DNA of 64,000 bases, from positions 32,001-96,000 of IMG/VR virus record IMGVR_UViG_3300013131_000024; one strand, written 5' to 3'. Below the pieces are notes generated by a model. That model did no database searches and was not told the DNA's origin. It was given only the letters and a program-made list of their open reading frames with translations. The position numbers and the translations under genes are program-made. This DNA comes from a virus. Shown piece by piece: positions 22,996-53,706 of this stretch (position 1 is its first letter; each line of letters begins with the position of its first letter).

Positions 22996-23011
22996 AGATT
23001 ACCAAAATGTC

Positions 23012-23039: not shown

Positions 23040-23046
23040 AAGTTTT

Positions 23047-23320: not shown

Positions 23321-23349
23321 TCATTATAATTGTAAAAAGAGAGACACAA

Positions 23350-23922: not shown

Positions 23923-23928
23923 TATTGC

Positions 23929-24002: not shown

Positions 24003-24031
24003 GTTATAGATAAAGATACTTATTTGAATAA

Positions 24032-24520: not shown

Positions 24521-24527
24521 AGAATAT

Positions 24528-24597
24528 GTGGGAGTAGCTCGGTTGGTAGAGCATTTGCCTTTCAAGCAAGATGTCGTGAGTTCAAGTCTCGCAACCA
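24528..24597 (+). pseudogene. Decayed copy of tRNA-Gly(TCC); anticodon now TTC, acceptor 3' strand lost
   Basis: Near-identical to 24695-24770 over D, anticodon and variable regions. Confidence 0.8.
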
Positions 24598-24602
24598 ATT
24601 AG

Positions 24603-24677
24603 CTCGCTGTAGTTCAATGGACAGAACGATTCTCTCCTAAAGAATAAATCCAGGTTCGATTCCCGGTGGCGAGGCCA
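24603..24677 (+). tRNA. tRNA-Arg(CCT)
   Basis: Cloverleaf, CCA. Confidence 0.88.
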
Positions 24678-24694
24678 GTGTTAAATAGTTTTAT

Positions 24695-24770
24695 GCGGGT
24701 GTAGCTCAGTTGGTAGAGCACTTGCCTTCCAAGCAAGATGTCGAGAGTTCGAGACTCTTCGCCCGCTCCA
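24695..24770 (+). tRNA. tRNA-Gly(TCC)
   Basis: Cloverleaf, CCA. Confidence 0.92.
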
Positions 24771-27006: not shown

Positions 27007-27069
27007 GGCTTTACTTCTTTAATACGACATAAATATATTGAGTTAGGAAATTTCCAGGAGTTGAGAATT

Positions 27070-29151: not shown

Positions 29152-30549
29152 TATTATTGGCGATGTCCAGTCTTTGCTATGCCATTTTGGTTTATTAAGA
29201 ATGTTGATATCTGTTAAATTAAATTTACAGACTCGATCTTTATAAACTTGCGTAGATTTATCGCAAAATCCATCTGCAGCTCTAGCAGAGAATGAAAGAA
29301 AAATTTCCGGATTTTTTTCTTGTAATTTATAAATTAATCTGTTCTCGGCTGCTATTCTATACTTAAGACTTGAAGTATAAGAGAGTGGTGTATAATTAAA
29401 TACATCACTAACATTATAAAAAGTATTTGCAGTATTATCTACCCAATCAAGATTATATGTGCCTAAATAATTTATTAAAATAAAACCATACTGAAGATTT
29501 TTAATTCTGTTCCAAGTCATGTCCCAATCGTAGAATTTTGATTTAAATTTTTCCCATAATATATTAGATTGTATATAATATTCTTCAGGTATATGTATAG
29601 GACCCGATGGAAAATTTTTGTTGATAAAACTTTTATAAAATTCTCCGTAATTTTCTCCACTCCATTGGCTTATCATTAAGCTCATAAATTGTAGACATTG
29701 TGGGTTCACATCGGTAATTACGACTTTGGTTTTATTTGTTGTACCTAGAATATTTAAATTATTAATCCAATTAAAACCTGTGCCTGTAGTGATATATTGC
29801 TCAATAGGACCTTGACAATTTATATTATCTAATAGACTATCTGAATTGTGCGAAGGAACAAAATTAGATCCGAAAAATTGATAATAATATAAGTCAGCAA
29901 CTTCTTTTAAAAAAACATGATCGTGTTCATAATAAAGATATTTTTTATAGTTCCTTATATCGCCTAAATCTATTATTTTTTTTTCCTTTAACAATAATTT
30001 AGATATAAGATTCCACCCGTGCTTTTTACCCACATATGTTTTTTTATTTTTTCCTGTTTTAATCCAAAGAGGAACATAATCGTCGTGTACATTTTCTTCA
30101 CTTCTTATTGGCTCTATCTGATCATGATATTCATCTTGTTCATAGCCCATCTCTGGCATATCGATATCGGAATAGTCATATAAATTTAAAATATAGAACT
30201 GATGATGTAATTCGTAATAATATTCTTTTCTATCTAAAATGTGTCCTGCTAAACTAAAATCTGTAGAACAAAGTTTTTCAACAGACTCAAATAGTTTATC
30301 GTTCATTTTTAAACTTGTACCAGTCGAAATAAAAACAGCATACTTGTATTCTTCATATACTGCCATTTTAGCTAATAGATCTTCAGATTCTCCTATGAGA
30401 ATATCAAACCTTTCATGACATTTAAATATAAATTGATCTGTAAGATTAATTGATATCTCTTTAGCCCAGTTAGTTTGACAATTATTAGTATTATCAATAA
30501 TGCAAAATACTATGGGTTTTTTCTTGCTAACACTAAATTTTATTGCCAT
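29143..30549 (-). CDS. Hypothetical protein (possible methyltransferase-like C-terminal half)
   Basis: 468-aa ORF; TGTGF and ITDVN only weakly suggestive. Confidence 0.6.
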   Translation of the reverse strand: MAIKFSVSKKKPIVFCIIDNTNNCQTNWAKEISINLTDQFIFKCHERFDILIGESEDLLAKMAVYEEYKYAVFISTGTSLKMNDKLFESVEKLCSTDFSLAGHILDRKEYYYELHHQFYILNLYDYSDIDMPEMGYEQDEYHDQIEPIRSEENVHDDYVPLWIKTGKNKKTYVGKKHGWNLISKLLLKEKKIIDLGDIRNYKKYLYYEHDHVFLKEVADLYYYQFFGSNFVPSHNSDSLLDNINCQGPIEQYITTGTGFNWINNLNILGTTNKTKVVITDVNPQCLQFMSLMISQWSGENYGEFYKSFINKNFPSGPIHIPEEYYIQSNILWEKFKSKFYDWDMTWNRIKNLQYGFILINYLGTYNLDWVDNTANTFYNVSDVFNYTPLSYTSSLKYRIAAENRLIYKLQEKNPEIFLSFSARAADGFCDKSTQVYKDRVCKFNLTDINILNKPKWHSKDWTSPIILR

Positions 30550-31106
30550 TTTGGAAACCTACTAAGTTGTCGTAAAAATTTTTCTGCATCTAATTGCCAT
30601 ACAGTTTGTAATGTTTCTCTATAAAATACTTGTCCTATATTTTTTAGGACACCTTGTTTTTCTAGAGCAGGACCAAATATATTGTTAACTCGACGCTGTG
30701 TTCCTACATCACTTTCGTTAGATGTTATGTAAAGCTTAGACGTTGGTGGAGCCCATTCAATACATTTGGGTATTAGAAATTGAGAAGTAGGATTTTGATA
30801 TTCGGTTATAACTCTAATAGTTCTTAAGGCTCGTCCATACGAACCCTCTATTTCATCAGTTAATACACACGTTCTGGCTGCTATTCTATAACTTCCTTCT
30901 CCCATAACATCTTCGAAACTATGAGCAGCTACACTTCCGATTGGTTTAGATTTAAAATACAATATCCAGACCTGTTTTTCTTTTTCATTATTAAAGCAAT
31001 CAACTAATTTTTTCTGGCTACAATTATTCAAAAAACCTTTAGCTTTAGCTCTTTCATAGAAATAAGATAAATCTAGATCTTCAGACCAAGGAATTACGTA
31101 GAACAT
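30540..31106 (-). CDS. GNAT-like protein
   Basis: IGSVAAH...YRIAAR...LYITSN pattern. Confidence 0.5.
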   Translation of the reverse strand: MFYVIPWSEDLDLSYFYERAKAKGFLNNCSQKKLVDCFNNEKEKQVWILYFKSKPIGSVAAHSFEDVMGEGSYRIAARTCVLTDEIEGSYGRALRTIRVITEYQNPTSQFLIPKCIEWAPPTSKLYITSNESDVGTQRRVNNIFGPALEKQGVLKNIGQVFYRETLQTVWQLDAEKFLRQLSRFPKWQ

Positions 31107-31825: not shown

Positions 31826-33304
31826 ATGTTAAAATGTATATTGTTCAATGTAGCCAGCGGAACTAATTTCGCAGGAAATGGTAGATCCGTTGGGGTTTAC
31901 AGAATCTCTCACCATCTTCGAGAAGAAGGTTGGGATGTAGAAGTTATAGATTTTGCTAACGAATGGAGTTTAGAAGATCTTAAATTACTTGCTAAATCAA
32001 GGATGCATGGCGGACTAAAATTTTTTGGATTCAGTCATATGTATTCAATATGGACTGAAACCTTAGAGAAATTTTGTCAATGGATTAAAAAAGAGTATAG
32101 TGACATAGTTCTAATATCTGGCTCTAGTGTATCACCTCAATTTACGTCTATACATTTAGATTTTTATATTCAAGGATTCGGAGAAAACGCTATAACAGCT
32201 TTACTATCATGGTTGTTTGGCAACGGACCTAAACCAATTTTTTCTATATTCAAAGCAAACGGAAAACCATTAATTGCTGCCAACGACAATTATCCTTCAT
32301 ATCCAAGGAGAAACTTAAATGTAATTTACGAAGATAGAGATTTTATCGAATCAGAAGAGTGGTTAGGCATAGAATTTTCTAGAGGATGTAAATTTAGTTG
32401 TGATTTTTGTAATTTTCCAGTATTAGGCGTAAAAGGTGATTATACCAGAGATGCCGAAAATTTTGAAATACAGATAAAAGATGCTTATGATAGATTTGGT
32501 GTTACTAACTATTTGGTATCAGACGAAACATTTAATGATCGTACAGAAAAAATTACTAAATTTGCAGATATAATAGATAAATTAGATTTTAAACCTTGGT
32601 TTAGCGGATTTATACGTCCTGATCTCTTAATTAACAGACCGCAGGACAGAGAAGAACTGCTACGCATGAATTTTTTAGGTCACCATTATGGTATAGAAAG
32701 TTTTAATTACAAAGCAGTTAAATCTATTGGAAAAGGTATGAATCCTGAAAAGGTTAAACAGGGTCTTATAGATGTTAGAAAATATTTTGAAAATAATGGA
32801 ATTAAAAAATACAGAGCTTTATTAACTTTTATCATAGGTCTACCTCATGAAACAAAAGATGACATTGAACGAACCACTAGATGGTTGATAGAAAATTGGC
32901 AAGGACAGTCATGGACTCCCTTCGTTCTGGAGATCCCCGTTGGGGAACTTAATAGAAAAAGTAAGATGAGCATGAACTATGAGAAATATGGCTATAGAAT
33001 TTTTCAAGGAGAGCACAAACATCTAGAGTATAAACAGGCAAGAGTATCTAAAGATTTGTTAATTTGGGAGCATGATCATATGAATTATTTCGATGCCTAT
33101 GATTTATTTTACAAAATGATAGAATCAAGAAATGATTTAAATAATAATTTTACTTTAGCTCCTTGGGATCTAGCTATGATAGGTCTTCCAGGAAACGTCT
33201 ATGATCGACTCATGTTACACAATTCATGTTTACAGGACAAAATTATAGAAGAAAATAGAATAAAATTTATACAAAGATACATAAGGAAAAAATTAGAATG
33301 TTAA
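31826..33304 (+). CDS. Radical SAM enzyme with N-terminal B12-binding-like domain
   Basis: SRGCKFSCDFC, DETFND, GIES, IIGLP. Confidence 0.9.
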   Translation: MLKCILFNVASGTNFAGNGRSVGVYRISHHLREEGWDVEVIDFANEWSLEDLKLLAKSRMHGGLKFFGFSHMYSIWTETLEKFCQWIKKEYSDIVLISGSSVSPQFTSIHLDFYIQGFGENAITALLSWLFGNGPKPIFSIFKANGKPLIAANDNYPSYPRRNLNVIYEDRDFIESEEWLGIEFSRGCKFSCDFCNFPVLGVKGDYTRDAENFEIQIKDAYDRFGVTNYLVSDETFNDRTEKITKFADIIDKLDFKPWFSGFIRPDLLINRPQDREELLRMNFLGHHYGIESFNYKAVKSIGKGMNPEKVKQGLIDVRKYFENNGIKKYRALLTFIIGLPHETKDDIERTTRWLIENWQGQSWTPFVLEIPVGELNRKSKMSMNYEKYGYRIFQGEHKHLEYKQARVSKDLLIWEHDHMNYFDAYDLFYKMIESRNDLNNNFTLAPWDLAMIGLPGNVYDRLMLHNSCLQDKIIEENRIKFIQRYIRKKLEC

Positions 33305-34767
33305 AATGTATTTTGTTTAACGTTGACAACGGTCCCTTAACTAGAAGACCAATAGGAGCACATAGAATAGCTCATTTTTTAAGAGAAAACAATTGGGATG
33401 CTGAAGTAATAGATTTTTTCAAATTTTGGAGTTTTGATCAACTACAACAATTAGCTAAACAAAAATTTACTCCAGATGTTAAATGGATCGGAATTTCTTA
33501 TCTTTTTTTGTCATCTCCTATCGAATCTGTTGATAATTTTTTCTTGTGGGTAAAAAAGGAATATCCACATATAAAAATCATAGTAGGAAGCCCGATACAG
33601 TATAATCAAAAATCTGTGTACGTTGACTATAATATATCTGGGTTCGGAGAAAACGCTCTGTTAGAACTATTAAAATATCTTTTCAGCAATGGAGCGTCAC
33701 CGAAATTTTCGTTGGCTACCCATGCCGGAAAACAGATACTAGCTAATGAAATGTACCCTTCTTATCCTATGAAGAGCCTCAATATAATCTATGAAGATAG
33801 AGACTTCATCCAGCCAGAAGAGTGGCTAGGCATTGAATTTGCTAGAGGTTGTAAATTTAGTTGTGCTTTCTGTAATTTTCCAGTTATAGGTGTTAAAGGA
33901 GATTACTCTCGAGATGCGGAAGATTTCGAAGTACAGATCAAGGATGCCTATGATAGATTTGGTGTAGAGAACTACTGGGTTTCAGATGAAACGTTTAATG
34001 ATCGCACGGAGAAAATCACCAAGTTCGCTGATGTTGTTGAAACACTTTCATTTACTCCATATTTTACCGGATTTATTAGACCTGACCTGTTAATCATTAG
34101 ACCACAAGATAGAGAAGAACTTCTGCGAATGAATTTTTTAGGTCACTTTTACGGCGTTGAAACTTTTAATCAAGAAACTGGAAAAATTATAGGAAAAGGT
34201 ATGGATCCTATTAAAATGAAAGAAGGATTGATAGCTATACGTAAATATTATGAACAATATGAAAATAGAAGATATCGGGGCAGTATAAGTTTAATTGCAG
34301 GGCTACCTTACGAATCGATTGACAGTATTTTACAAACCAAAGATTGGTTGATAGAAAATTGGCAAGGACAAAATTTTACCATGTATCCATTAGAGATTGG
34401 AGTTGATGAATTTGATAATCCATCAAAAATAAGTAAAAATTGGAAAAAATATGGTTATGTAGATGCATCTAACGATCCTGATATAGGACACCATTTCGCA
34501 CACATAGGAAATATGCAAATGAATAAAATTTTTATTTGGAAAAATGATTTCACTAATCTTAAAGAAGCCAGCGACATAGCGTATCTATATTGGAAAGAAA
34601 AATACAATACTGGAAACGATTTTAGACTTAGCAACTTTGCATTATTACATTTAGGATTACCTAAAAACTTAGATGAAAAATTTTCTGTAAAAGATACCGA
34701 AGAGATAGAAATGTACTCGGCAAATAAAATTATACAAGATTATATAGAGAAAAAATTAAACAATTAG
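33298..34767 (+). CDS. Radical SAM enzyme with B12-binding-like domain (tandem paralog)
   Basis: ARGCKFSCAFC; highly similar to upstream gene. Confidence 0.9.
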   Translation: MLKCILFNVDNGPLTRRPIGAHRIAHFLRENNWDAEVIDFFKFWSFDQLQQLAKQKFTPDVKWIGISYLFLSSPIESVDNFFLWVKKEYPHIKIIVGSPIQYNQKSVYVDYNISGFGENALLELLKYLFSNGASPKFSLATHAGKQILANEMYPSYPMKSLNIIYEDRDFIQPEEWLGIEFARGCKFSCAFCNFPVIGVKGDYSRDAEDFEVQIKDAYDRFGVENYWVSDETFNDRTEKITKFADVVETLSFTPYFTGFIRPDLLIIRPQDREELLRMNFLGHFYGVETFNQETGKIIGKGMDPIKMKEGLIAIRKYYEQYENRRYRGSISLIAGLPYESIDSILQTKDWLIENWQGQNFTMYPLEIGVDEFDNPSKISKNWKKYGYVDASNDPDIGHHFAHIGNMQMNKIFIWKNDFTNLKEASDIAYLYWKEKYNTGNDFRLSNFALLHLGLPKNLDEKFSVKDTEEIEMYSANKIIQDYIEKKLNN

Positions 34768-34777
34768 TTACGAAAAA

Positions 34778-35845
34778 ATGAAAAAATTGTCAGATACTCT
34801 TTCTGTTTGTGAATTTTGTTATAGACATGTGCCAGCCATACGATTTGAAAGAGATGGAGGAATCTGGTTGTGGAAAAAATGTAAATGGCATGGAGAATCA
34901 GAACATTTAGTCGAGCCTGATGCAAGTTTTTATTTAAATTATACCTACATAAGAAAACAATTAGAAAGTTACATGATTGATATAACCAATAAATGTAATC
35001 TCACTTGTCCAAACTGTCATCAAGAACCGAATAATAATTCAAAAGATTTACCTATAAATTTTTTTATAGATATCATATCATCATGGCCAGATAACGGTTG
35101 GCCAGTAGCACTTTGTGGGGCAGAACCGACTATTAGAAAAGATTTACCTGAATTTGTAGAAGCCATTAATTCTATGCCAAGAAAGAAACGTGATATTATT
35201 ATCCTCACCAACGCTGTGCGACTGGCTGATGAAAATTATACGCAGCAATTTATTGCCTACAACAATATCTACTGGACTATTGGGTTAAACCATCCTGAAT
35301 ATCAAGGGCATAAGGTTAGAGAAAAACAAATTAAAGGAATTGAAAATTTAGTAAAATATAAACAAAAAATTAAGAATATCAGTTACACTTTAGAAATACT
35401 AGGACAAATGGAGTATTGTCTTGAAGAGTTACAAGAATTTTCAAAAAAATATTGTAAGGCCTTTAGAGTAAGGACAGGTGTTGATATTGGCAGATATCCA
35501 GGAGGTCCAAAAGTGTATATGTCAGATTTAGTCAAAGAAATGAATAGAGTGGCAGAAAAAAATAAATGGCCAATTGAAAAAATTAATGACCAAGGTAATA
35601 GAGCTCATTACGCTGTGTTAATTAATGATGTGCCAGTAAAAATTATTCAATGGCCAGATGCACAAACATTAGATTTAAGAGAAATACAAACGGAAGCTTT
35701 TGGAGATTTTGTACCTAACAAACCAGCATCTCCGCTGATCCATCAAATTATTTTACGAGATGCACACATTAACAAAGGTCTTCCTCTATATGATACCATT
35801 CCACAGGAATATTTAGATAATTATGGCAATCATAGGAATCAATAA
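34778..35845 (+). CDS. Radical SAM enzyme with N-terminal CxxC...CxxHG domain
   Basis: CNLTCPNC, GAEP, TNA. Confidence 0.9.
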   Translation: MKKLSDTLSVCEFCYRHVPAIRFERDGGIWLWKKCKWHGESEHLVEPDASFYLNYTYIRKQLESYMIDITNKCNLTCPNCHQEPNNNSKDLPINFFIDIISSWPDNGWPVALCGAEPTIRKDLPEFVEAINSMPRKKRDIIILTNAVRLADENYTQQFIAYNNIYWTIGLNHPEYQGHKVREKQIKGIENLVKYKQKIKNISYTLEILGQMEYCLEELQEFSKKYCKAFRVRTGVDIGRYPGGPKVYMSDLVKEMNRVAEKNKWPIEKINDQGNRAHYAVLINDVPVKIIQWPDAQTLDLREIQTEAFGDFVPNKPASPLIHQIILRDAHINKGLPLYDTIPQEYLDNYGNHRNQ

Positions 35846-41711: not shown

Positions 41712-42398
41712 ATGGAACTTTATCTAGATCCAAATTGGAAAAAAATCGGAATCAGTATCAGCGGTGGTGCAGATAGTGCTCTATTAGCATTTCTAATCTG
41801 TTCAAATACAAATGCAGACATACATTTTACTAATCAAATACGTATGTGGAGGACACGACCTTGGCAAGAACATGTAGCAGATACTGTTATCGATTGGTTC
41901 AAAAATCGATTTAAAAATAATTTCTATCTTCATAGAAATTTAATACCACCAGAATTAGAGTGGTCCGAAAATGGTCCGACATTTATCGACGAATACGGAA
42001 AAATAAAAAGTGGTAATCGAGTAATATTGAGATCTCACAATGAATATGTGGCTCACAGATATAAATTAGATGCATTGTATGGAGGAGTAAATCAAAATCC
42101 ATCGATCAATATCGAAGGTTCTCTAAAAGATAGAGACGAGGAAAACTCTTATCTATCTCCGTATTTTATACATGATGGGATTCATATTTGTCATCCGTTA
42201 GTAAATGTGAAAAAAGACTTTATTATAAAACAATATGTTAAACATGAGATACTCGATCTCCTTGACATTACTCGTAGTTGCGAGGGAGAATTTGAGGATA
42301 TAAACTATAAAACATACATACCCGGACAAGTTGTTCCAACTTGCGGAAAATGTTTTTGGTGCAAAGAAAGAGAATGGGGCATCGAACATGCAAAGTAA
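41712..42398 (+). CDS. QueC-like PP-loop ATPase
   Basis: SGGADS; TRSC...CGKCFWC. Confidence 0.75.
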   Translation: MELYLDPNWKKIGISISGGADSALLAFLICSNTNADIHFTNQIRMWRTRPWQEHVADTVIDWFKNRFKNNFYLHRNLIPPELEWSENGPTFIDEYGKIKSGNRVILRSHNEYVAHRYKLDALYGGVNQNPSINIEGSLKDRDEENSYLSPYFIHDGIHICHPLVNVKKDFIIKQYVKHEILDLLDITRSCEGEFEDINYKTYIPGQVVPTCGKCFWCKEREWGIEHAK

Positions 42399-43644
42399 AA
42401 CATTTTGTATGCATCCGTTTACAGGATTGGCAACAAGAGAAGATGGAGCGATAAAGGTATGTTGCCGTAGTCATCCTATAGGATTCATTCAGAATTCAGA
42501 TCTAGAAGAAATTTGGAACAATGATACTATCAAACGCATTCGTGAGCAGGTATTAAACAACGAGCGGCCACCAGAATGCGAACCTTGTTTTAATTTAGAG
42601 GATCAAGGTGTTGAAAGTCTCCGACAACGGCATATTAGAGGAAACATTCCCGAAGCTAGAATTAACTTATATCCGAAAGCATTAGAAAAATTAGATTCAG
42701 ATTATTCAATGCCTTTTGAAATTCCAACTATGGAGTTAAAATTGAATAATCTATGTAATTTAAAATGTAGAATGTGTCATCCTATGGACAGTACCAGTTG
42801 GAATGATTGGGGAGAGATTAAAGAATTCTACAAAAACGAAAATCACATTATGTTCAAAATGATAGAAGATCATGGACTAGAACAAAAACCATTTTTAGAT
42901 CAGTTCCAGGATAATCCGGAATGGTGGAAAAAATTAGAAAAGTTGTTACCTTATTTTCGCCGAGTAGAGTTCGCCGGCGGTGAACCTCTTATGGATCCAC
43001 AGCATTATAAAATTTTAGATATGTTATCTCATTATGGAGATAATATAGAAATTAAATATGCTACCAATTTAACATTGTTAGGAAAAAGCAATAGAACTAT
43101 TTGGCAATATTGGCCTAAATTTAAAAGTGTAGCAGTAAACGTTAGTATCGACGGCATAGGAGATGTGTATGAATATATTAGAGGAAATGCTCGTTGGTCT
43201 GAACTAATACATAATGTTAAACAGATACAACAAATCCCCAACATAAGCAGAATAGTTGGTGCAGTTACTGTTCAAGTTTCTAACATAATGCAACTAGACA
43301 AGATCTGCGAATATTTTTTAAATGATTTAGGTATAGTATTTCATACTCATAGAGTAGAATATCCTCGAGTGCTTTCAGCTCAAGTTTTACCGAACGATCT
43401 TAGAAAGGTCTGTATAGAAAGATTAAAATCTGTTTCTGAACGTGTACATAAATTTAAATTAGTTTTAGAACATCCTCGATTGATAGAATATACTTTAGGT
43501 CAACTGAGAGATAATATAAATTATCTCGAAGCCAGAGATCAAAGTTTTAGATGGCAAGACTGTATAGAGTTCAATCAAAGATTAGATAAGACAAGAAGTC
43601 AAAGTTTTATCTCTGTTAATCCTGAGTTTAAACCTTATGTATAA
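42388..43644 (+). CDS. Radical SAM enzyme with N-terminal SPASM/twitch-like domain
   Basis: CMHPF...CC...CEPC; CNLKCRMC; GGEP. Confidence 0.9.
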   Translation: MQSKTFCMHPFTGLATREDGAIKVCCRSHPIGFIQNSDLEEIWNNDTIKRIREQVLNNERPPECEPCFNLEDQGVESLRQRHIRGNIPEARINLYPKALEKLDSDYSMPFEIPTMELKLNNLCNLKCRMCHPMDSTSWNDWGEIKEFYKNENHIMFKMIEDHGLEQKPFLDQFQDNPEWWKKLEKLLPYFRRVEFAGGEPLMDPQHYKILDMLSHYGDNIEIKYATNLTLLGKSNRTIWQYWPKFKSVAVNVSIDGIGDVYEYIRGNARWSELIHNVKQIQQIPNISRIVGAVTVQVSNIMQLDKICEYFLNDLGIVFHTHRVEYPRVLSAQVLPNDLRKVCIERLKSVSERVHKFKLVLEHPRLIEYTLGQLRDNINYLEARDQSFRWQDCIEFNQRLDKTRSQSFISVNPEFKPYV

Positions 43645-45362: not shown

Positions 45363-46323
45363 ATTTAGTTGTGTTTATTTCTGGCTGACAAAAACATTTG
45401 TTTCTAGTACATGTTGTCGGAATAATTTTAGGATTAAAATTATTCTTAAAATTTTTATCGAATATATTAAATTGATAAGGAAGGTCATAAAGATTTTCTC
45501 CACACGCTCCTTGGATAGAACCAGATTTATCAATATATAATGTATCTATTCCGATATTACATTTCCAACCGTCAAAAGAGTTTAAAGAATTTAATGAAAT
45601 CCAATTATGCGGAACTTTTTTTGTGCTATTATCATTAAATGTGACTGTACTTTTTTTATCTGGAATAGTTTGAGCTTTTAACCACCAGAAGACATTTGGA
45701 ATTCTTTTTAGTGATTTAGACAAATATTTTTTTTGATCTTCGGTATATCTTATAGAATGATGATGCACTTCTTGAGCATCTATAGGCCAACTTTTATTAC
45801 TGCCTTTCAAAGTCTCAATTAAATGAACGCACTGATTCCATGCTGTTGGATCCATTAATACTTTTACAGACAAACTCTTGTTTTTACTGTAAAGTAAATC
45901 TCCAACTTTTATTATGTGGGCAGGATCAACAAACTGGTGATGACAGCTTATCATCGTGTGATCAAAATTCTGACCATTTTCATCCCACCATTTCAATGTC
46001 CTACTCCCATTGGTAGAAATGCTTATCAAAGTGTTATAATTTTCTTTAAAGTATGAAACAAAATCTGTAAGATTCGGCCAAATAGTTGGTTCTCCACCGA
46101 TAATATGAAAATAAAAACGTTCTTTATTTTGATGTTGTTTATAATAATTTAATAAATGACTTAAATTATCAATTAGAAGATCGTAATCCGGCCAACGATG
46201 AGTTCCTTCGTTTGATCCGGGAAAGCAATACCAACATCGATGATTACATACGTTGAACAAGAATAATTCAATTCTTAAATAATTATTCGGTAAATTGGAT
46301 TCTATTTTAATAATTTCTTTCAT
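45349..46323 (-). CDS. Radical SAM enzyme
   Basis: CNHRCWYC, GGEP, TNG. Confidence 0.9.
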   Translation of the reverse strand: MKEIIKIESNLPNNYLRIELFLFNVCNHRCWYCFPGSNEGTHRWPDYDLLIDNLSHLLNYYKQHQNKERFYFHIIGGEPTIWPNLTDFVSYFKENYNTLISISTNGSRTLKWWDENGQNFDHTMISCHHQFVDPAHIIKVGDLLYSKNKSLSVKVLMDPTAWNQCVHLIETLKGSNKSWPIDAQEVHHHSIRYTEDQKKYLSKSLKRIPNVFWWLKAQTIPDKKSTVTFNDNSTKKVPHNWISLNSLNSFDGWKCNIGIDTLYIDKSGSIQGACGENLYDLPYQFNIFDKNFKNNFNPKIIPTTCTRNKCFCQPEINTTKFKIL

Positions 46324-47735
46324 AATAAATTGCTTAGTTCCGGAAATGTTATTTTAAAATCTAATTTACGTTGATTATCTAAAGTCGTTATATATTCTCT
46401 AAAATCAGGTAATAAATTTGTATGGTCTTCACTGTCCATCCAATCGAGAATTCCTTCCCAGCGTTTCCAACCATATGAATTTACTTCCCAGAAGTCTTCA
46501 TCTTTGGTATAATTATGCCAAAGCCATTCTTTTAATTCGTTGAATAAATTTCGAATTTCTTCTTTATGTTCTTTTGGCAAAACTTTCAAACTTAGCCAGG
46601 TCGGAATCCATACGAGATGTGCGCTGAACAATCCTCCGCTATGTATCTCTCCTACTATGTTTTGATTAAGATTAATTTTCTTAAAATTTTGTGAAATCTT
46701 CCATTTTATAAAATCAGGTATATGTTTGATATTCAACAATTGAACTGCACATGCGATTGTTGTTTCGATGTTTTCTGGAGCATTGTCAAGCAAATGCAAA
46801 TTTTTTACTACGGTTTCCCAATCGGTCGGATATCGAATATAATGCAATCTATCCCCCATACCATCTATGCTGAATCCAAATTTCACTTTTTTAAAATTTT
46901 TCCATAGATTTATTGTATTCTCATCTAGAAGTAATCCGTTGCTATTATATCTAAGTTCGATATCTTTTGCATATCCCTGTTTTATTATTTCTTCCAAGAA
47001 TCTCCTGTGTTCTTTAATCATTAGAGGTTCACCACCTGCAAAATAAATTTGTTTTATGTTAGGAATTTGTTCATAAATTTCTTTCCAAAAATTTAAATTC
47101 TCATGCCACAGATTATTAAATTTGTCTTGCTGCCAGCTCAATTGTTTTTTGATTAAAGAACTATTGAATAAAGGATAAATCTTTTTATGATCCTCTACCC
47201 ATTTGCTGCTGTCATGCGGACTACACATAACACATTTTAAATTACAGGTATGACCTAATCTTAAATCAATATAATGTAATTTATAAGGAACCCTACCGTC
47301 TAGGTCTGTCTGGGCAATTAATGATGGAATATCTATGCCTTGCTTATGCCATACGCCAGTTTCCCAAATACGTTTACTTACAACTCCGTTTTGTTCTTCT
47401 TCGAAACATTTTTTACAACTTAAAGGAATTTTTCCTTCTAACATCGTTTGTCTAACATTTCGCATGTATTCGCTGTTAAATGATTCCGATGGCGAATCTT
47501 TAGAAAAATTTGCAGATTCTCCAGTTTCTGTTTTTACAAGACCTACATTATAATTTCCATCTTTGGCACCACTGGCATTTGCAACACAACATATTCGCAT
47601 ATCTCCATTCGGTCTAGTAGCCAAATGTATCCATGGAAGAACACAGAAGCTAGGGCTTCCACTAATGTCTTCTATTTGTTTTTGCCAACTACCTAACTGT
47701 GATTCTTGAGATTGCATCCAGAATATTTTATTCAT
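46320..47735 (-). CDS. Radical SAM enzyme with N-terminal SPASM/twitch-like domain
   Basis: CVLPW...CC; CNLKCVMC; GGEP. Confidence 0.9.
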   Translation of the reverse strand: MNKIFWMQSQESQLGSWQKQIEDISGSPSFCVLPWIHLATRPNGDMRICCVANASGAKDGNYNVGLVKTETGESANFSKDSPSESFNSEYMRNVRQTMLEGKIPLSCKKCFEEEQNGVVSKRIWETGVWHKQGIDIPSLIAQTDLDGRVPYKLHYIDLRLGHTCNLKCVMCSPHDSSKWVEDHKKIYPLFNSSLIKKQLSWQQDKFNNLWHENLNFWKEIYEQIPNIKQIYFAGGEPLMIKEHRRFLEEIIKQGYAKDIELRYNSNGLLLDENTINLWKNFKKVKFGFSIDGMGDRLHYIRYPTDWETVVKNLHLLDNAPENIETTIACAVQLLNIKHIPDFIKWKISQNFKKINLNQNIVGEIHSGGLFSAHLVWIPTWLSLKVLPKEHKEEIRNLFNELKEWLWHNYTKDEDFWEVNSYGWKRWEGILDWMDSEDHTNLLPDFREYITTLDNQRKLDFKITFPELSNLL

Positions 47736-48819
47736 TGAATTGATCTAATTTTAAAAATTGGTCTTTGCTTTTGCTTATTTGATGATTTTTAAAAACTCCA
47801 CAGGTTCTCGAACATGCCCTGAGCGGACTATTTTCAAAAGAATCTATCCATAGTGTTTGCCACTGATCGCTGTCGACAATCTCTTCTATAGTTTTATTTT
47901 GCAAATTAAAATTCTCTAGTCCTCCAAACTTATCTATAAATTCAAAAAACGTTTGGCGACTATCTTCTTGAAATGAATGAACTAGCTGATCGGATTTTGT
48001 ATAAATGTAAGGAACTGCGCCTACAAAACAGCAGGGCCATAAATACCCATTAGCATCGATGAAAATACTCTTTGTTTTTTCTACATCGCAATTTATTTTT
48101 ACTTCGCTGAAAATTTTTCTATAATTTTCTACAGTTTTTTTATCAATAAAAGCTAATTTATGAACCGTAGGCATTTCTAATTTATGTGAAACTTTTCCTT
48201 CTTTGTTATAAACTTCATAATAAGGGGTTCCAATAAATCTACTTGTTTGTTTTTCAAAGAAACTATCGAATCCGAGAGTTTTTGCTAATTTTTTACATTC
48301 TTCTAATTGATGTTCATTGTGCTTAAATGTAATAAAAACCCATCGTGCATTTCCCCCTGCTTCGATAAATGATTTTGAATTATCGATAATTTTGTTCCAG
48401 TCAGTTCCGATTCTGTAAAGGGAATGCGTATCGGCTAGGCCATCTAACGCAAAATGCACTAAATGATTAGTCGGTAATGCAAGTGCAAGGTCTTTCCACC
48501 ATTTTGTTGACCTAGCTCCGCCATTTGTATGGATATCAATTTTTATTTTTGGAGATACTTTTTTAATATATTCTGTTATAGGTATAAGATCTTGGTTAAG
48601 TATAGGATCTCCAAAATTTCCGCACATAGAAATCTGATGCAATTGAGATAACAAATCAGGTGAAACTATTTTTTTAAAAAAATCTAAATCAACATCTTTT
48701 ACCTTCAAAATAGGATTAGGCAACCCTCCATGATGATTTCTCGCACACATAGGACAACTTGCCTGACAATTAGAGGATAGCTCAAGATGTAATTCTTTTA
48801 AATCTTCGTATCGATACAT
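47728..48819 (-). CDS. Radical SAM enzyme with C-terminal SPASM/twitch-like domain
   Basis: CQASCPMC, GDP, TNG, PCC. Confidence 0.9.
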   Translation of the reverse strand: MYRYEDLKELHLELSSNCQASCPMCARNHHGGLPNPILKVKDVDLDFFKKIVSPDLLSQLHQISMCGNFGDPILNQDLIPITEYIKKVSPKIKIDIHTNGGARSTKWWKDLALALPTNHLVHFALDGLADTHSLYRIGTDWNKIIDNSKSFIEAGGNARWVFITFKHNEHQLEECKKLAKTLGFDSFFEKQTSRFIGTPYYEVYNKEGKVSHKLEMPTVHKLAFIDKKTVENYRKIFSEVKINCDVEKTKSIFIDANGYLWPCCFVGAVPYIYTKSDQLVHSFQEDSRQTFFEFIDKFGGLENFNLQNKTIEEIVDSDQWQTLWIDSFENSPLRACSRTCGVFKNHQISKSKDQFLKLDQFNE

Positions 48820-49433
48820 TATACTTTACCTATGATCATGAATCTTTTATATAAAGATAATTCTAATTCTCTCGACCAAAGAACTTGGATATTAGATTGT
48901 TTTATAAATTCTTCTAGAGAACCGGCTGTCCTCACATGTTCTGGTATGTTATAGTTGTTGCTTTGTAAAACAATTATACTGTTTTGAGGTTGGCCACTGA
49001 GCCATAGATCGTATTGATCCTGCGTAATATGTTCGCAACTGGTATTGATAATGATATCAGCATCACTTCGCATAATACACATGTCTGCGGTTACTGCTCT
49101 AAAACGACCTCCCATTTCTTCTTTCTTATTCATCATAGTTGCTATAGATTCACAGTCTGGATCTATATCAATGCTACGAATATTACTGATAGGAATATCG
49201 CTTTGGAACAACATACTGGCCAACACTCCTACCCATCCGCCGTGTACGTCGACACTTAATGGAAAGTCTAAAACTTTGTTTATTTCAGTATAGATATAAT
49301 ATTCTAAGTTTTCAATTAACCATTCTTTGCTTTGTATTTGTCCTCGCCAGAATGCATCAAGGGTACGCATAGGATCCTTGCTTTCACGAATAGCACACAT
49401 CCAATAATGTAAATGTTCTGTATCAATTTGCAT
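48819..49433 (-). CDS. Class I SAM-dependent methyltransferase-like protein
   Basis: GGWVG, SIDID, INTSCEH. Confidence 0.7.
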   Translation of the reverse strand: MQIDTEHLHYWMCAIRESKDPMRTLDAFWRGQIQSKEWLIENLEYYIYTEINKVLDFPLSVDVHGGWVGVLASMLFQSDIPISNIRSIDIDPDCESIATMMNKKEEMGGRFRAVTADMCIMRSDADIIINTSCEHITQDQYDLWLSGQPQNSIIVLQSNNYNIPEHVRTAGSLEEFIKQSNIQVLWSRELELSLYKRFMIIGKV

Positions 49434-50427
49434 GAATAGGTATAATCTTTTTACTGTTGTTAATCTTTCTCTTCGGCATGACAGTTTCAACACTGCAAAC
49501 ACAAGAAGTTTGACTACATATCGCTGGTTTAATAGAGGGATTAAATTTTTTTGTAAAGTCTATATCATAAAGATTGTATGAGAAGTCATTTCCATATAAA
49601 ACTTGATTACAACTTCCTTGTATGTTACCTTCTTTTGATACATTGACCCAATGAACACCTACACTACATTCCCATCCATAAAAATTATTCAACTTTTTTA
49701 GTAGGATTTCGTTGTCCTTAAACTTATGTTTTTTATTATTTAAATCAGTTACCACTACAGAACTTCTATAATATTTGTTATTTTTCCAAAAGAAAAACGG
49801 ATTTACTTTACGTGCTCTATGTTTAGATAAAATTTTCTTTTGTTCTTCTGTATAATCTACAGTATTGTCGATAATTTCAACATACCTAATAGTCCATCTA
49901 CGTCTACTACCTTTTAAGTATTCAACCAATTCTAAACACTTGTCCCATTCACGGGGATCCATCATTACTGATACACTTACTACAATATTTTTCTCATACA
50001 AATGATCACATAGATTTCTAAATTCTTCCTTGTCGACAAATTCATGATGGCAACTCATATGCACTCGATCAAAATACTTTGCGTTCTGTTCCCACCAGTC
50101 TAATTTCTTAGAACCGTTAGATGTCATAGATATTAAACAATTAAATTCTTCTTTAAGAAACTTTATAAACTCTGGTAATTTAGGCCAATGCGTAGGTTCA
50201 CCGCCACAAAAATGAACATCGAATACTTTTTTATCTGTATAAGTTTTATAATAATTTATAAAATGAGAAATATTTTGTTTTATTACATCTATATCAGGAA
50301 ATTTATGAGTACCTACATTTGACCCTGGCCAACAATACCAACATTTGTAATTACAGTAATTGCCGAGATTTATGTCAATGTTTAATACTTCTTCTCGCCA
50401 ATTATTCTTTATTTCGATTATATCCAT
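49423..50427 (-). CDS. Radical SAM enzyme
   Basis: CNYKCWYC, GGEP, SNG. Confidence 0.9.
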   Translation of the reverse strand: MDIIEIKNNWREEVLNIDINLGNYCNYKCWYCWPGSNVGTHKFPDIDVIKQNISHFINYYKTYTDKKVFDVHFCGGEPTHWPKLPEFIKFLKEEFNCLISMTSNGSKKLDWWEQNAKYFDRVHMSCHHEFVDKEEFRNLCDHLYEKNIVVSVSVMMDPREWDKCLELVEYLKGSRRRWTIRYVEIIDNTVDYTEEQKKILSKHRARKVNPFFFWKNNKYYRSSVVVTDLNNKKHKFKDNEILLKKLNNFYGWECSVGVHWVNVSKEGNIQGSCNQVLYGNDFSYNLYDIDFTKKFNPSIKPAICSQTSCVCSVETVMPKRKINNSKKIIPIHAN

Positions 50428-51124
50428 ATTGTACCATTTTAATATTTAATCTTGTCTTATCTCCTGGATAGTCGGTAATGATATCAGTTAGAGTATTTGC
50501 AAATAACTCATTTCCTTTTAAGGTATAATGATTACCTGACGGTTTTTTAAAATTTAAAAAATATTTTTCCTGTTCTTCTGCATATGTGTATAAAGGTATA
50601 CCAATAGTAACTCCTTTATCAAAAGTATAATTAGAATAATCCCCATCAAACCCAAAAAAATGTACAATCTTTTCTATACTATATTTTTTAACTATATCGT
50701 CTAGTTCCTTAAACCATTGATGTACTGCCCAATTATAAAAATCAAATGACATTAGATGTTTGTAATATTGAAATGCAGCTTGATGCACTTCATCGGGCAT
50801 CTTATATTCTTTATCGTTTACATTAATTAACCTAGTTTCGACACTTCGAAAATTAAGACCTACATCGTTATCATTCGGAATTCGATATGGTTCTGTATGA
50901 CATACTATCAGTATTTTGGGTATGCTAATTTCCAATTCTTTTAAAATAATTTTCCTGTAAGACCACCAAGATCCGCCCGGCATTCCTTTGCCTCTCGGTT
51001 GTCTTTTTGAATTAAATGTCTCTCCTGTTAAATTACTAACTAGAATTTGAGGCCAGTGATATTTCTTGTTTCTGTCTGAACAAAAACTATCTCCGACTAT
51101 TAATATATCATTCCAATTATACAT
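50402..51124 (-). CDS. SGNH-hydrolase-like protein
   Basis: GDSF...NH. Confidence 0.6.
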   Translation of the reverse strand: MYNWNDILIVGDSFCSDRNKKYHWPQILVSNLTGETFNSKRQPRGKGMPGGSWWSYRKIILKELEISIPKILIVCHTEPYRIPNDNDVGLNFRSVETRLINVNDKEYKMPDEVHQAAFQYYKHLMSFDFYNWAVHQWFKELDDIVKKYSIEKIVHFFGFDGDYSNYTFDKGVTIGIPLYTYAEEQEKYFLNFKKPSGNHYTLKGNELFANTLTDIITDYPGDKTRLNIKMVQYGYNRNKE

Positions 51125-51155
51125 GCTTATACTTTACATCCGTCTAAATTTATTT

Positions 51156-51812
51156 CTAATCGCACTTAGCTCGATCTCTTAAGAAATGTTTTACAACTCC
51201 GTAAGGTTTATGATACGGAATATCGTTGCTTATATTTAAAAACTCTAAAATCTGTTTGGCAAATGCTTGATTGCATTCTATACCCGGATGACATTTATCA
51301 AGAGCATAAGGATAAAATTCACTTAATCTAATAATATAAACAGGAATATGTCTAACTGTGTCATTTGACAATGTTAATATTGTGTTTATAGAATCTTTAA
51401 CAATTAAATTATATGTTTGTATATTTTTAGATTTTAAAAACACGTTAGCATGGTTAACAAATAATTTTGACATTAGATTAGCATCAAAAACATCATAAAA
51501 ATCTTTGTAGTACTCGCAATCAGATCTTACATTAATATCAATGACGCGATCTTGTTTTATAATTGCACTTCGATCTGGGTACGACCATAAAATAAAAACA
51601 GTATCTGTTTCAATAAAATTAAAATTAAGTATAGTATTCCAGATTCGTTTATTACTAGATCCCGGACTAGCCATGTTTATACAATGTCTATTCATATATT
51701 TTGCAAGAATAGTAGGCCATCCTAATTGACTAGGAGTAGGACACGGGTTAACACAATCAGGAAGACCTTGTCCATATGTCAACGAGCATCCAAAAGTTAT
51801 CAATCTTTCCAT
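51156..51812 (-). CDS. SGNH-hydrolase-like protein
   Basis: FGCSLT...GSSN...DKCHP. Confidence 0.65.
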   Translation of the reverse strand: MERLITFGCSLTYGQGLPDCVNPCPTPSQLGWPTILAKYMNRHCINMASPGSSNKRIWNTILNFNFIETDTVFILWSYPDRSAIIKQDRVIDINVRSDCEYYKDFYDVFDANLMSKLFVNHANVFLKSKNIQTYNLIVKDSINTILTLSNDTVRHIPVYIIRLSEFYPYALDKCHPGIECNQAFAKQILEFLNISNDIPYHKPYGVVKHFLRDRAKCD

Positions 51813-52783
51813 TTTGGTATCTTACTGTCTGCTGAACTAACACATGTTGGGGTGATACAAATTTTTGATTCTTTAAAAAGTTCAAAATTAGTTATAGTAC
51901 CTAATGATATATCTTGACAACTATACGATCTTTTAACTTCACTACCTCTTATTATGATACTTTGATATCCTGAATTGCAATTCCATCCGGTGAATTTGTT
52001 AAATCCGTAAGCATTAAATCGTTCAGCTTGATCAATTAAATATTCTTTTTCGTTTTTATCGTAAAGAGATATCTGATACACATCTTCACCGTTCGTTTGT
52101 TGAGGAAATCCGGTTTTCATCAGTCTGGTCATCTCATCGGTATAACCATCTACTACACAACTTGCAGTAGGATCACTCTGCGGTTTTAAAGTCACATTGA
52201 TTCCTCTTCGATATAATCGTTCGCAACGTTCGTATAATTCGTAAAATTTTTCCGGTACCATTACTTGATTAACTGTTAAGAAAACATTTTCATAAATTAA
52301 CTGTAAACATTTATCTCCAAATTCTTGTTCTTTAGCATGTTCTGCATGATAACTAGCAGTTATACTACGGCGTTGTAAATCTTTAGTAATACTACACCAA
52401 GATCCCCACCATTTCGACCCTGGACTAAGGTTCGTAGTCATATGAACACTTTGGTATGGGGTTGTTGGACCATCATCTAAATATTGTATTAGATGTAAGA
52501 GATCTTTATAAGCAGTAGGTTCTCCGCCGCTAAAACTCCAATGAAACTCCATGAAATCATTTTGCCTAGCCTGACGTTTAATTTCATCTATGGTGCGTTT
52601 ATAAACTGCAAGTTCTTGATGGTCAAGTTCATCGCTTCGAGCATAAGGCCAACAATAAGAACAATTATAATTACAGAATCTTCCCAATATCCAGCTTACA
52701 GAAAACAAAGGACGAGACAACATAGTTCGTTGTCCAAATTTAACAATATGTTGAAAAGGAATTTTTTGAAAATCGTGCGTCAT
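51800..52783 (-). CDS. Radical SAM enzyme
   Basis: CNYNCSYC, GGEP. Confidence 0.9.
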   Translation of the reverse strand: MTHDFQKIPFQHIVKFGQRTMLSRPLFSVSWILGRFCNYNCSYCWPYARSDELDHQELAVYKRTIDEIKRQARQNDFMEFHWSFSGGEPTAYKDLLHLIQYLDDGPTTPYQSVHMTTNLSPGSKWWGSWCSITKDLQRRSITASYHAEHAKEQEFGDKCLQLIYENVFLTVNQVMVPEKFYELYERCERLYRRGINVTLKPQSDPTASCVVDGYTDEMTRLMKTGFPQQTNGEDVYQISLYDKNEKEYLIDQAERFNAYGFNKFTGWNCNSGYQSIIIRGSEVKRSYSCQDISLGTITNFELFKESKICITPTCVSSADSKIPKWKD

Positions 52784-52811
52784 AAACTGCTAATATTTAA
52801 CCTATAAAAGG

Positions 52812-52840
52812 TTGCTTTAAAGATTTTAAGGTTATATAAT
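52812..52840 (+). promoter_or_regulatory. sigma70-like promoter of the orphan tRNA-like RNA
   Basis: TTGCTT-17-TATAAT; predicted start about 52847. Confidence 0.7.
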
Positions 52841-52846
52841 ATACTT

Positions 52847-52957
52847 GTGGTCGTGAGTGGAATTGGCAGACCTCCGGTCCGTTGCGAAACGCACTTGGGT
52901 TATGGGGCGCCGTCTTAGACACAGCCTTTGTAGGTTCGAATCCTACCGACCACACCA
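52847..52957 (+). tRNA. Atypical 111-nt tRNA-Leu-like RNA with ~33-nt insertion after the D arm
   Basis: gtggtcg/cgaccac plus ACCA; Leu-type D loop GGAATTGGCAGAC; perfect T arm; imperfect gccgt-cttagac-acagc arm. Confidence 0.7.
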
Positions 52958-53000
52958 TATTCTATGATAAGTAGAATACTACTAACAAAAGGAAAACATT

Positions 53001-53204
53001 ATGTCAAATACAGTAGAACAATTAAAAGCAGCGTTTGAAGAATTCTTAGCTGAAGATTCAAAATTTTCTTCGGGAAATAATGCAGCAGGTACACGTAGTC
53101 GTAAAGCATTACAGGAAGTAGCCAAACTTGTCAAGGCTCGTCGCAATGAAATCACCGAAGAAAAAAACGCTCGCAAAGAAGCCAAAGCCTCAACAAAGGG
53201 CTGA
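53001..53204 (+). CDS. Histone H1-like (Hc1 family) protein
   Basis: KF-x2-GN-x-AAGTR-x-RK-x-L...R motif. Confidence 0.75.
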   Translation: MSNTVEQLKAAFEEFLAEDSKFSSGNNAAGTRSRKALQEVAKLVKARRNEITEEKNARKEAKASTKG

Positions 53205-53205
53205 T

Positions 53206-53706
53206 ATGGATGACAAGGACCTACTGACCTTCGGTGGTACAGACAGCATTACGGTTACTGACACTATTACTCTTGACCTAGACTTTGGTGCTGCCCAACC
53301 AGCTTTAACTACTATAGGGTTCGATACTATTAGTTTAGATGATATAGTCAATACATCATCGACCATAACATTGCCTTCTTCCTCAACGTACACAATTAAT
53401 ACCGGAGGTAGTAGTTCTATAGGTGGAGGAGTATACACTACTTCTGGTACAGGTTATACTTGGAATCAAAGCTATGCCCCTACAGTTAATATTGACAACG
53501 ATGGTGTCAATATTAAAGATGGTGGTGATCTTAAGATAGGCAATAAAAGTCTCAAAGAGTTTATGACCAAGATGGAAGAACGTTTGTCCATTTTGGTCCC
53601 GGATCCAGAAAGACTAGAAAAGTTTGAAGCACTGAAAAAAGCCTACGAACACTACAAAACTATGGAAGCACTGTGTTTTCCAGACGAGAAAGACAAGAAA
53701 GAATGA
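53206..53706 (+). CDS. Hypothetical protein
   Basis: ORF track with start at ATG 53206. Confidence 0.7.
   Translation: MDDKDLLTFGGTDSITVTDTITLDLDFGAAQPALTTIGFDTISLDDIVNTSSTITLPSSSTYTINTGGSSSIGGGVYTTSGTGYTWNQSYAPTVNIDNDGVNIKDGGDLKIGNKSLKEFMTKMEERLSILVPDPERLEKFEALKKAYEHYKTMEALCFPDEKDKKE

Follow-up and report, generated by a model that had tools for sequence, protein, structure and literature searches.

Phage tRNAs are now partly understood as countermeasures to tRNA-targeting immunity. Some phages also encode stable RNAs that resemble tRNAs in part, such as T5 RNA1 and RNA2 (NC_005859, rna1 at 30501-30644 and rna2 at 32959-33083), which are annotated as "tRNA-like stable RNA with unknown functions". 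Here we describe a 111-nt tRNA-Leu-like RNA lacking an anticodon, encoded at 52847-52957 (+) of a 64,000-nt stretch of DNA (the window). The window is part of an IMG/VR virus record (IMGVR_UViG_3300013131_000024) of 109,857 bases, which is judged 31% complete and contains the element once. The element belongs to a conserved RNA family that is found in single copy in large uncultured aquatic phages. It is in all likelihood a functional tRNA mimic that does not decode. An earlier note on the same DNA, made from the sequence alone, had described it as an orphan tRNA-Leu-like RNA with an extra domain, an imperfect anticodon-like arm and its own promoter.

The molecules closest to the element are class II tRNA-Leu (RF00005). 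Both have a 7-bp acceptor stem, A73-CCA, a D loop GGAAUUGGYAGA with G18G19, the A15-U48 pair and a T arm, and both carry a long arm at the variable position. The element differs in having a capped hairpin of 4-12 bp instead of a 7-nt anticodon loop, and its arm in the variable position is longer (5 bp, an irregularity, 3-4 bp and a 3-nt loop). It also has an extra nucleotide before a weak D stem and a transcript predicted to be leaderless. With R1, a covariance model of the element's family, tRNA-Leu genes score 36.8 bits in T5 and 32.6 bits in T4, and those of the window 47 and 42.6 bits. T5 RNA1 and RNA2, which are phage-encoded stable RNAs, resemble the element in that their acceptor and T arms look like those of a tRNA and their enlarged interior does not. 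RNA1 further has the same Leu-type D arm (CCGGAAUUGGUAGACGG) and matches the Leu D-loop/T-loop pattern, which has no match in phages phi3T and SBSphiJ, where a different motif may be required. However, their R1 scores of 15.3 and 15.1 bits place them outside the family, they lie inside a tRNA cluster without an encoded CCA, and RNA1 retains the loop sequence CUUAAAA beside an insertion of ~40 nt. The T4 species 1 and 2 RNAs (rnaC and rnaD) are likewise small stable phage RNAs among tRNAs and partly tRNA-like. Their architecture is unlike that of the element, with 18.8 bits for rnaC and no match for rnaD, and they have no promoter of their own, being cut out of the transcript of the tRNA cluster. 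At 15-19 bits, below genuine tRNAs, the T5 and T4 RNAs show no homology to the element and share a theme only.

Anticodon-less tRNA mimics are also represented by the tRNA-like domain of tmRNA, which is chargeable and whose aminoacyl-tRNA synthetase (aaRS) ignores the anticodon. In contrast to the 111-nt element without an open reading frame (ORF), tmRNA is of alanine type, 300-400 nt long, and carries a tag ORF and pseudoknots. Neither Rfam nor ARAGORN calls tmRNA (RF00023) on the element. The laboratory minimalist tRNA-Leu of Aquifex aeolicus without anticodon arm (delta-AC-arm, PMC2377443) follows the same identity logic as the element. The construct is synthetic, whereas the element is natural and under selection, and charging fidelity could differ because editing needs the arm.

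The element consists of the following parts:

52847-52957, + strand: whole 111-nt anticodon-less tRNA-Leu-like RNA, R1 score 105.6 bits
52847-52853, + strand: 5' strand of the acceptor stem, GTGGTCG, forming 7 Watson-Crick pairs with CGACCAC at 52947-52953
52854-52875, + strand: D region, nt 8-29 (UGAGUGGAAUUGGCAGACCUCC), with nearly invariant alignment columns and the equivalents of U8, A14, A15 and G18G19
52872-52899, + strand: hairpin 1 (nt 26-53), occupying the place of the anticodon arm, from constrained folds; its helices 2 and 3 covary
52900-52903, + strand: linker UUAU between hairpins 1 and 2, 2-4 nt in relatives
52904-52928, + strand: hairpin 2 (nt 58-82), in the position of a class II variable arm; its helices 4 and 5 covary
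52929, + strand: U equivalent to U48, the partner of A15 in tRNA-Leu (invariant column T83)
52930-52946, + strand: T arm GTAGG-TTCGAAT-CCTAC, 5 bp with loop UUCGAAU, supported by covariation and a local match to the Rfam tRNA model
52954-52957, + strand: discriminator A73 and encoded CCA; A73 is present in 55 of 55 distinct members

The perfect acceptor stem, A73-CCA, the T arm and the Leu-type D loop (GGAATTGGCAGA), all of which the earlier note had read from the sequence, stand as described. The same is true of the distance of 28 kb between the element and the array of 29 tRNA genes at 17316-24770. With canonical tRNAs the element shares an acceptor stem of 7 bp, a discriminator base, CCA, and a T arm whose loop is UUCRANY. 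It lacks an anticodon arm with a 5-bp stem, 7-nt loop, U33 and purine 37. ARAGORN does not call the element. Rfam, searched at gathering score and at an E-value of 10, returns only a 14-bit T-arm fragment (RF00005 tRNA model), and the element fails that model globally. The window copy carries every feature of its family, including CUUUGUAGGUUCGA, the invariant GUGAGUGGAAUUGGYAGACCUCC, a capped hairpin 1, a hairpin 2 with a 3-nt loop, A73-CCA and a promoter starting at nt 1.

The family was recovered with a 17-mer from the D loop (GGAATTGGYAGACCTCC), which yields 51 loci in a scan of IMG/VR. The set was enlarged by a scan of metagenomes, and loci were retained if their acceptor stem was paired and their T loop correctly spaced. 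After filtering, the family comprises at least 82 copies from IMG/VR and metagenome contigs, 55 of them distinct and 92-116 nt long. With the model R1, members score 83-125 bits, and genuine tRNAs reach at most 47 bits. The best matches from outside the family are the two tRNA-Leu genes of the window, followed by Ser and other tRNAs at 26 bits or less. Each of five genomes (5/5) holds a single copy, including a complete genome of 322 kb with terminal repeats and one of 353 kb that is 98% complete. Metagenomes with DNA runs carrying the element's stretch come from lake, freshwater and wastewater. The element goes far beyond chance, because it has 54 other distinct homologues, a gap in R1 scores separates the family from tRNAs, and every helix covaries.

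The family is absent from Rfam 15. BLASTN of the element with 1 kb of surroundings against 50,697 phage records finds only T-arm matches and the Hc1 gene of the Synechococcus phage S-SRM01. TBLASTN of two window proteins against cultured phages gives no match. Among 185,579 reference genomes, the 17-mer matches 80 times and never with a T arm at the right distance; these matches are chance. No paper describing the family was found in the literature. A 2023 catalogue of structured RNAs from IMG/VR mentions tRNA-like candidates in generic form only (PMC10690425).

Covariation was assessed in 27 distinct sequences realigned to the model. Standard pairs make up 94.9% of cells and double compensatory changes affect 22 of 29 pairs, figures that are somewhat inflated by the alignment having been fitted to the structure. 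None of 500 shuffled controls attains any of the main covariation measures, and moving the partners by 1-3 columns reduces pairing to only 32-46%. All six helices covary; each hairpin contributes two of them, and the other two are the acceptor and T stems. Double compensatory changes occur in 6 of the 7 acceptor pairs and in 3 of the 5 pairs of the T arm, in which 100% of cells are paired. A G1-U72 wobble is present in 10 of the 27 members. The raw sequences of hairpin 1 also show swaps directly (e.g., CTAGTC/GACTAG, CTATGC/GCATAG and CTCGAC/GTCGAG). The D stem has at most 2-3 weak pairs and lies in a stretch without variation, which makes it untestable by covariation.

Hairpin 1 lies directly 3' of the D region. 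The window copy has 10 bp with two 1x1 mismatches and a GNRA tetraloop, GCGA, at 52884-52887. Across the family, the length varies from 4 to 12 bp, with 4 bp and a tetraloop in loci L319 and L142. Caps include UUCG (8), GCGA (7), UACG, GAGA, GAAA and others. Hairpin 2 of the window copy has a base GGGGC/GCCUU, a 3x3 internal loop, a stem GUC/GAC and the loop UUA at 52915-52917. The family plan is a 5-bp base (G-U, G-U, G-C, N-N, C-G), a 2-nt bulge or 3x3 loop, and a stem of 3-4 bp. The terminal loop is 3 nt long, being AUA, UUA, AUU or GUA in 46 of the 52 members folding into two hairpins. Its closing pair is C:G in 20 sequences, A:U in 5 and U:A in 2. The resulting layout is that of a class II tRNA, with a D arm, an arm in the anticodon position, a linker of 2-4 nt, a long variable arm, U48 and a T arm. 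The opposite layout, with hairpin 2 as anticodon arm, leaves a variable region of 1 nt and an "anticodon loop" of 3 nt. The element has no anticodon because hairpin 1 is capped and a covarying pair closes hairpin 2 to a 3-nt loop. From its predicted fold, the element cannot decode.

This architecture revises the earlier note in three respects. The extra domain had been placed before an anticodon arm, and the two hairpins instead occupy the positions of the anticodon arm and of the class II variable arm. Even L274, the nearest relative, does not keep the TAG anticodon-like arm (stem GCCGU/ACAGC with a 7-nt loop), and the apparent TAG consists of the UA of the hairpin 2 loop and the G of the covarying closing pair. 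The hairpin tgcg-aaa-cgca gives way to the register CGUU-GCGA-AACG within the GNRA-capped 10-bp arm, which is backed by a double change from G31:C48 to A31:U48 in L282. Two other structures were also discarded. The unconstrained minimum-free-energy fold (z = -0.87) pairs GAGUG with CACUU, a partner confined to the closest subgroup. A first structure from MAFFT and RNAalifold had both hairpins in the wrong register and was superseded by the model-based realignment.

Conservation includes the parts of the molecule that leucyl-tRNA synthetase (LeuRS) is known to recognize. The stretch nt 8-29 (UGAGUGGAAUUGGYAGACCUCC) is nearly invariant next to a freely compensating acceptor stem, and U48 and the T loop are invariant across the family. 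The 3' ending is ACCA in 49 of the 55 distinct members and ACCG in 4. The nucleotides for the contacts U8-A14, A15-U48, G18-U55, G19-C56 and U54-A58 are all present. In A. aeolicus, A73, U8-A14, G18-U55, G19-C56 and how the variable arm is oriented (U48) are critical for LeuRS (PMC2377443). Deletion of the anticodon arm lowers affinity 2.5-fold and leaves kcat unchanged, while post-transfer editing suffers (PMC2377443). The tRNA-Leu identity elements A73, U8-A14, G18-U55, G19-C56 and A15-U48, as well as the variable-arm orientation, are found in the element and are invariant in the family, in keeping with the chargeable RNA that the earlier note had proposed. Taken with these conserved nucleotides, the requirements of LeuRS suggest that the element would keep what the bacterial enzyme needs and drop only what the enzyme can spare. 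The element is thus probably leucylatable. The acceptor stem, A73-CCA, the elbow of D and T arms, and the long hairpin resembling a variable arm are under selection, and the length of hairpin 1 is arbitrary.

Upstream of the element lies a promoter:

52812-52817, + strand: -35 hexamer TTGCTT, 17 nt upstream of the -10 hexamer
52835-52840, + strand: -10 hexamer TATAAT, with G1 (52847) as the seventh base downstream and predicted start

The pattern of TTGNNN, 16-18 nt, TANNNT and then 5-8 nt to nt 1 is found in 54 of the 55 distinct members, which bears out the proposal of a dedicated promoter with a start at the mature 5' end. The spacing between the -10 hexamer and nt 1 is 6 nt in 50/55 members, and nt 1 is a purine in 53/55. 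Several members have a terminator hairpin right upstream. The promoter is predicted to be strong, of sigma-70 type and early, with a start at nt 1 that would leave no leader for RNase P to remove.

The element or a close relative is represented, with word depths of 3-25, in contigs of four metatranscriptome runs that belong to four studies. Three of these RNA-library contigs start 10-21 nt inside nt 1 and none reaches upstream, leaving the promoter uncovered. Two extend 100-260 nt downstream into the Hc1 gene. One contig of 124 nt consists of adapter and 52857-52957, with the adapter abutting 52857, a fragment end. It ends at CCA, which is only a weak hint and may reflect a break in the assembly graph. 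There is no sign of splicing of hairpin 1, because the RNA-library contigs contain no joint inside the element. The stretches 52698-52841 and beyond 53200 are uncovered, possibly due to relatives of less than 88% identity, and were not counted as silence.

The element lies in a gap of 217 nt between two ORFs, with a further small hairpin on its 3' side:

51800-52783, - strand: radical SAM ORF, the divergent upstream neighbour (Pfam PF04055, E = 4.8e-12)
52960-52976, + strand: small conserved hairpin TTCTA-TGATAAG-TAGAA, which contains the motif ATAAGTA and lies past the CCA end, ahead of the Hc1 ORF
53001-53204, + strand: ORF of an Hc1 histone-like protein, the downstream neighbour (Pfam PF07432, E = 8.9e-15)

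A radical-SAM homologue occupies the same place in 20 loci of the family. The order of a leftward radical SAM gene, the RNA, a small ORF and a conserved 187-aa protein is repeated in 20-30 loci. The ORF following the RNA differs by subgroup, being Hc1-like in the subgroup of the window, a small secreted-looking HExxH protein in another, and a P-loop protein in L127. In L150 the RNA is followed by a tRNA; in L125 nothing is close and the RNA lies 59 nt after a tRNA array. The variation of the downstream gene between subgroups suggests action in trans rather than in cis, and the arrangement argues for an independent, trans-acting RNA gene. For the radical-SAM and Hc1 neighbours, a functional tie would go beyond what gene order shows. 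The window holds at least eight radical-SAM ORFs, an unusual concentration (31826-35845, 42331-43644 and 46320-52783). B12-binding domains occur in two of them, SPASM domains in three and an HMPTM-type zinc ribbon in one.

The hairpin at 52960-52976 keeps its motif, and its 5' strand covaries in Hc1-type relatives (TACTT/AAGTA and ATACT/AGTAT). Candidate roles are a processing site, a weak terminator or a late promoter. The motif ATAAGTA resembles a T4-type late promoter, TATAAATA. In the subgroup ending in CCAUACCA (L120, L121, L126, L133, L148 and L156), a second conserved and covarying hairpin lies 3' of the RNA, with the form AAGC-N-CUG...CAGG-N-GGCUU followed by UAUAAGUAUUAGAAC. This second hairpin may be a terminator or a processing site. 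The Hc1-like ORF and the ORF overlapping it at 53128-53706 (+) correspond to a single ORF of 221 aa in L137. In the window, the two halves are in different frames, with a run of A7 at ~53162-53168 in the overlap. The split could stem from a frameshift, transcriptional slippage or an assembly error.

We tentatively favor a role of the element as a decoy or competitive substrate for host factors that recognize class II tRNAs by shape. The primary transcript would begin at nt 1, making an RNase P step needless, and host enzymes might trim the 3' side to CCA. Host LeuRS could then charge the RNA, as the anticodon arm would not be needed. The element would stay off the ribosome because it cannot pair with codons. 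Early in infection, the RNA would build up and act as a decoy, or compete as a substrate, for a host factor that recognizes the body of the molecule, that is, the acceptor and CCA end, the elbow and the long variable arm, and not the anticodon. The likeliest targets would be anti-phage effectors that inactivate class II tRNAs, so that real tRNAs would be spared and decoding left undisturbed. Recent studies demonstrate factors of this kind in anti-phage systems. Septu and retron-Eco7 PtuAB cleave tRNA-Tyr in its variable arm, an attack that a phage tRNA-Tyr relieves (PMC13096335). The toxin MenT3 (DUF1814) needs a long variable loop and the CCA end, and a shorter anticodon stem has little effect (PMC11162799). 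MenT3 is a nucleotidyltransferase of the superfamily that includes the abortive-infection toxin AbiEii (PMC11162799).

Several observations weigh against this explanation. Hairpin 2, with 8-9 bp and an irregularity, is longer than the usual variable arms of tRNA-Leu. Charging may be poor given this length, because an enlarged variable arm lowers both kcat and affinity of A. aeolicus LeuRS (PMC2377443). The D stem is weak and is preceded by 3 rather than 2 nt in an alignment to E. coli tRNA-Leu. To our knowledge, no defense effector targets the body of tRNA-Leu, and we know of no action of PtuAB or MenT3 on this tRNA. The RNA-library contigs are a consistent hint of expression and prove neither transcription nor the ends of the RNA. 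The strict conservation of A73-CCA is unneeded for a decoy and fits the role of an aminoacyl donor at least as well.

Such a donor would be charged by LeuRS and pass its leucine, independently of the ribosome, to a host L/F-transferase or a phage enzyme. It is possibly tied to the neighbouring radical-SAM island, and the lack of an anticodon would keep the pool out of translation. Besides the strictly kept A73 and CCA, the retained leucine identity set with an anticodon arm dispensable for charging and the conserved adjacency to radical SAM in 20 loci fit this role. The G1-U72 wobble might add to this by weakening use by the translation apparatus. Yet synteny among related phages is no evidence of a functional link, and the element of L125 sits in a tRNA array instead. 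Profile searches for PF03588, PF02388, PF09924, PF00133, PF01743, PF16715 and PF13480 were negative in the record, two complete and two partial relatives. No L/F-transferase, FemAB, DUF2156/LPG_synthase_C, Acetyltransf_6, cyclodipeptide synthase, class I aaRS or CCA-adding enzyme was found there, while the control searches detected these families in reference genomes. A search for PF04738 (Lant_dehydr_N) gave no match, but its control was silent as well, which leaves that result without weight. The earlier proposal that the RNA serves the adjacent modification island as an aminoacyl donor is left without evidence by the absence of the searched families that use or handle aminoacyl-tRNA. A host enzyme or an unrecognised phage family is possible as the leucine transferase. 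Overall, we consider a leucine donor unlikely. More doubtful still is a sponge or regulator of a housekeeping protein that handles tRNAs, such as LeuRS, EF-Tu, or a processing or modification enzyme. An abundant early mimic would titrate the protein and thereby re-tune host translation or tRNA maturation. The promoter of strong early type, the invariant D region and intact elbow, which are the parts such proteins grip, and the free length of hairpin 1, which makes the anticodon end irrelevant, are all in line with a sponge. The phage however relies on the same machinery and has about 30 tRNAs of its own, so titration would hurt the phage too. We regard it as improbable that the element is a cis-acting 5' module of an early mRNA, whose tRNA shape would protect the transcript or direct an RNase cleavage that frees and times the downstream message. 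The predicted start at nt 1 with an ORF 20-70 nt downstream in most loci, the RNA-library contigs continuing from the element into the Hc1 ORF and the absence of a strong terminator after CCA would suit such a module. On the other hand, the downstream gene is inconstant, L125 and L150 have no close ORF, and selection on A73-CCA and on the nucleotides of tertiary contacts would be needless for a simple protective hairpin.

The architecture speaks more strongly against readings in which the element is an ordinary or a broken tRNA. A decoding tRNA would be either a tRNA-Leu(UAG) that loses or tolerates its 33-nt insert, or a tRNA-Arg(UCG) in short relatives. The window copy can indeed be drawn with the loop CUUAGAC on the stem GCCGU/ACAGC, and ARAGORN calls L128 and L143 as tRNA-Arg(tcg). 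This stem and loop are unconserved in the closest subgroup (e.g., L274), and the three loop-adjacent pairs covary as Watson-Crick pairs, yielding the 3-nt loop. Family members have G, A or U at the "U33" position, the RNA-library contigs hold the unspliced form without a joint, and hairpin 2 as anticodon arm would leave a 1-nt variable region. The phage moreover already has a tRNA-Leu(UAG) at 21712-21795. The tRNA-Arg(tcg) calls are a product of opening the cUUCGg tetraloop. Decoding is accordingly a very remote prospect. A group I intron in the element is contradicted by the extra ~30 nt compared with a required length of at least 200 nt, and Rfam reports no intron match. We give practically no credence to a decaying tRNA-Leu pseudogene with junk insertions, for which the missing calls by ARAGORN and by Rfam at gathering score could be cited. 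The 55 distinct copies keep all helices by compensation, and they retain A73-CCA, an invariant D region of 22 nt and a promoter at a precise spacing. A pseudogene is refuted by covariation and promoter conservation. The insert is conserved in homologues, as both extra hairpins covary among the 27 distinct sequences. The view of the earlier note that the element is a functional tRNA-Leu-like RNA is therefore upheld by covarying helices and a promoter kept in 54 of 55 members.

A conserved non-decoding tRNA isolates the non-translational part of the role of phage tRNAs in counter-immunity. In this family the minimalist tRNA-Leu has a natural version, whose predicted leaderless transcript would be a rarity among tRNA-like genes. 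Large uncultured lake phages commonly carry the family, yet no RNA database or paper was found to include it. We see as rather speculative the broader proposal of a natural, chargeable, anticodon-less tRNA made from the first minute of infection, acting either as a sponge for immune effectors that attack class II tRNAs by shape or as a private leucine carrier excluded from translation. If true, phage RNAs would gain a new functional class, and the "tRNA-like stable RNAs" of T4 and T5, a puzzle for 50 years, would have a possible explanation. The partner, once found, would lead to a new mechanism of anti-defense or aminoacyl transfer and suggest experiments for the T4 and T5 stable RNAs. Annotation pipelines would gain a model for RNAs that are now missed or miscalled, like the two relatives called tRNA-Arg by ARAGORN.

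Other unusual tRNA-like genes occur in the window and in related data. The earlier note saw a theme of extra arms shared between the element and 18245-18343. The likeness holds loosely only, as the latter is a true tRNA (59 bits) with 7-nt anticodon loops. This 96-nt tRNA at 18245-18340 (+) scores 59.3 bits with Rfam, is uncalled by ARAGORN and can be drawn in two ways, GGGAG-CUUAUAC-CUCCC (UAU) or CAGGC-CAGAUAA-GCCUG (GAU), each with a perfect 5-bp stem and a 7-nt loop. Both UAU and GAU are isoleucine anticodons, and Rfam takes the first of the two hairpins for a D-loop insertion of 25 nt. A further Rfam tRNA at 24528-24600 (+; 44.8 bits), also uncalled by ARAGORN, has acceptor strands that do not pair with each other; at the array edge, it probably represents a truncated tRNA or a pseudo tRNA. 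At least 92 further distinct phage RNAs in IMG/VR (L002-L117) combine a 7-bp acceptor stem and a T arm with a tRNA-Leu D arm (GGCGGAAUUGGUAGACGC), and have an interior of 45-75 nt that is highly variable and not tRNA-like (e.g., L007:6527-6634 and L096:8289-8387). Some seem pseudoknotted (L007, GAGCUUU with AAAGCUC), and Rfam scores them as tRNA at 31-40 bits. This set is much larger and more heterogeneous than the family of the element. Elsewhere in the window, the ORF at 27061-28476 (+) encodes an Mtd_N domain (major tropism determinant N-terminal, E = 6e-10). Mtd_N-type proteins are of the kind diversified by diversity-generating retroelements.

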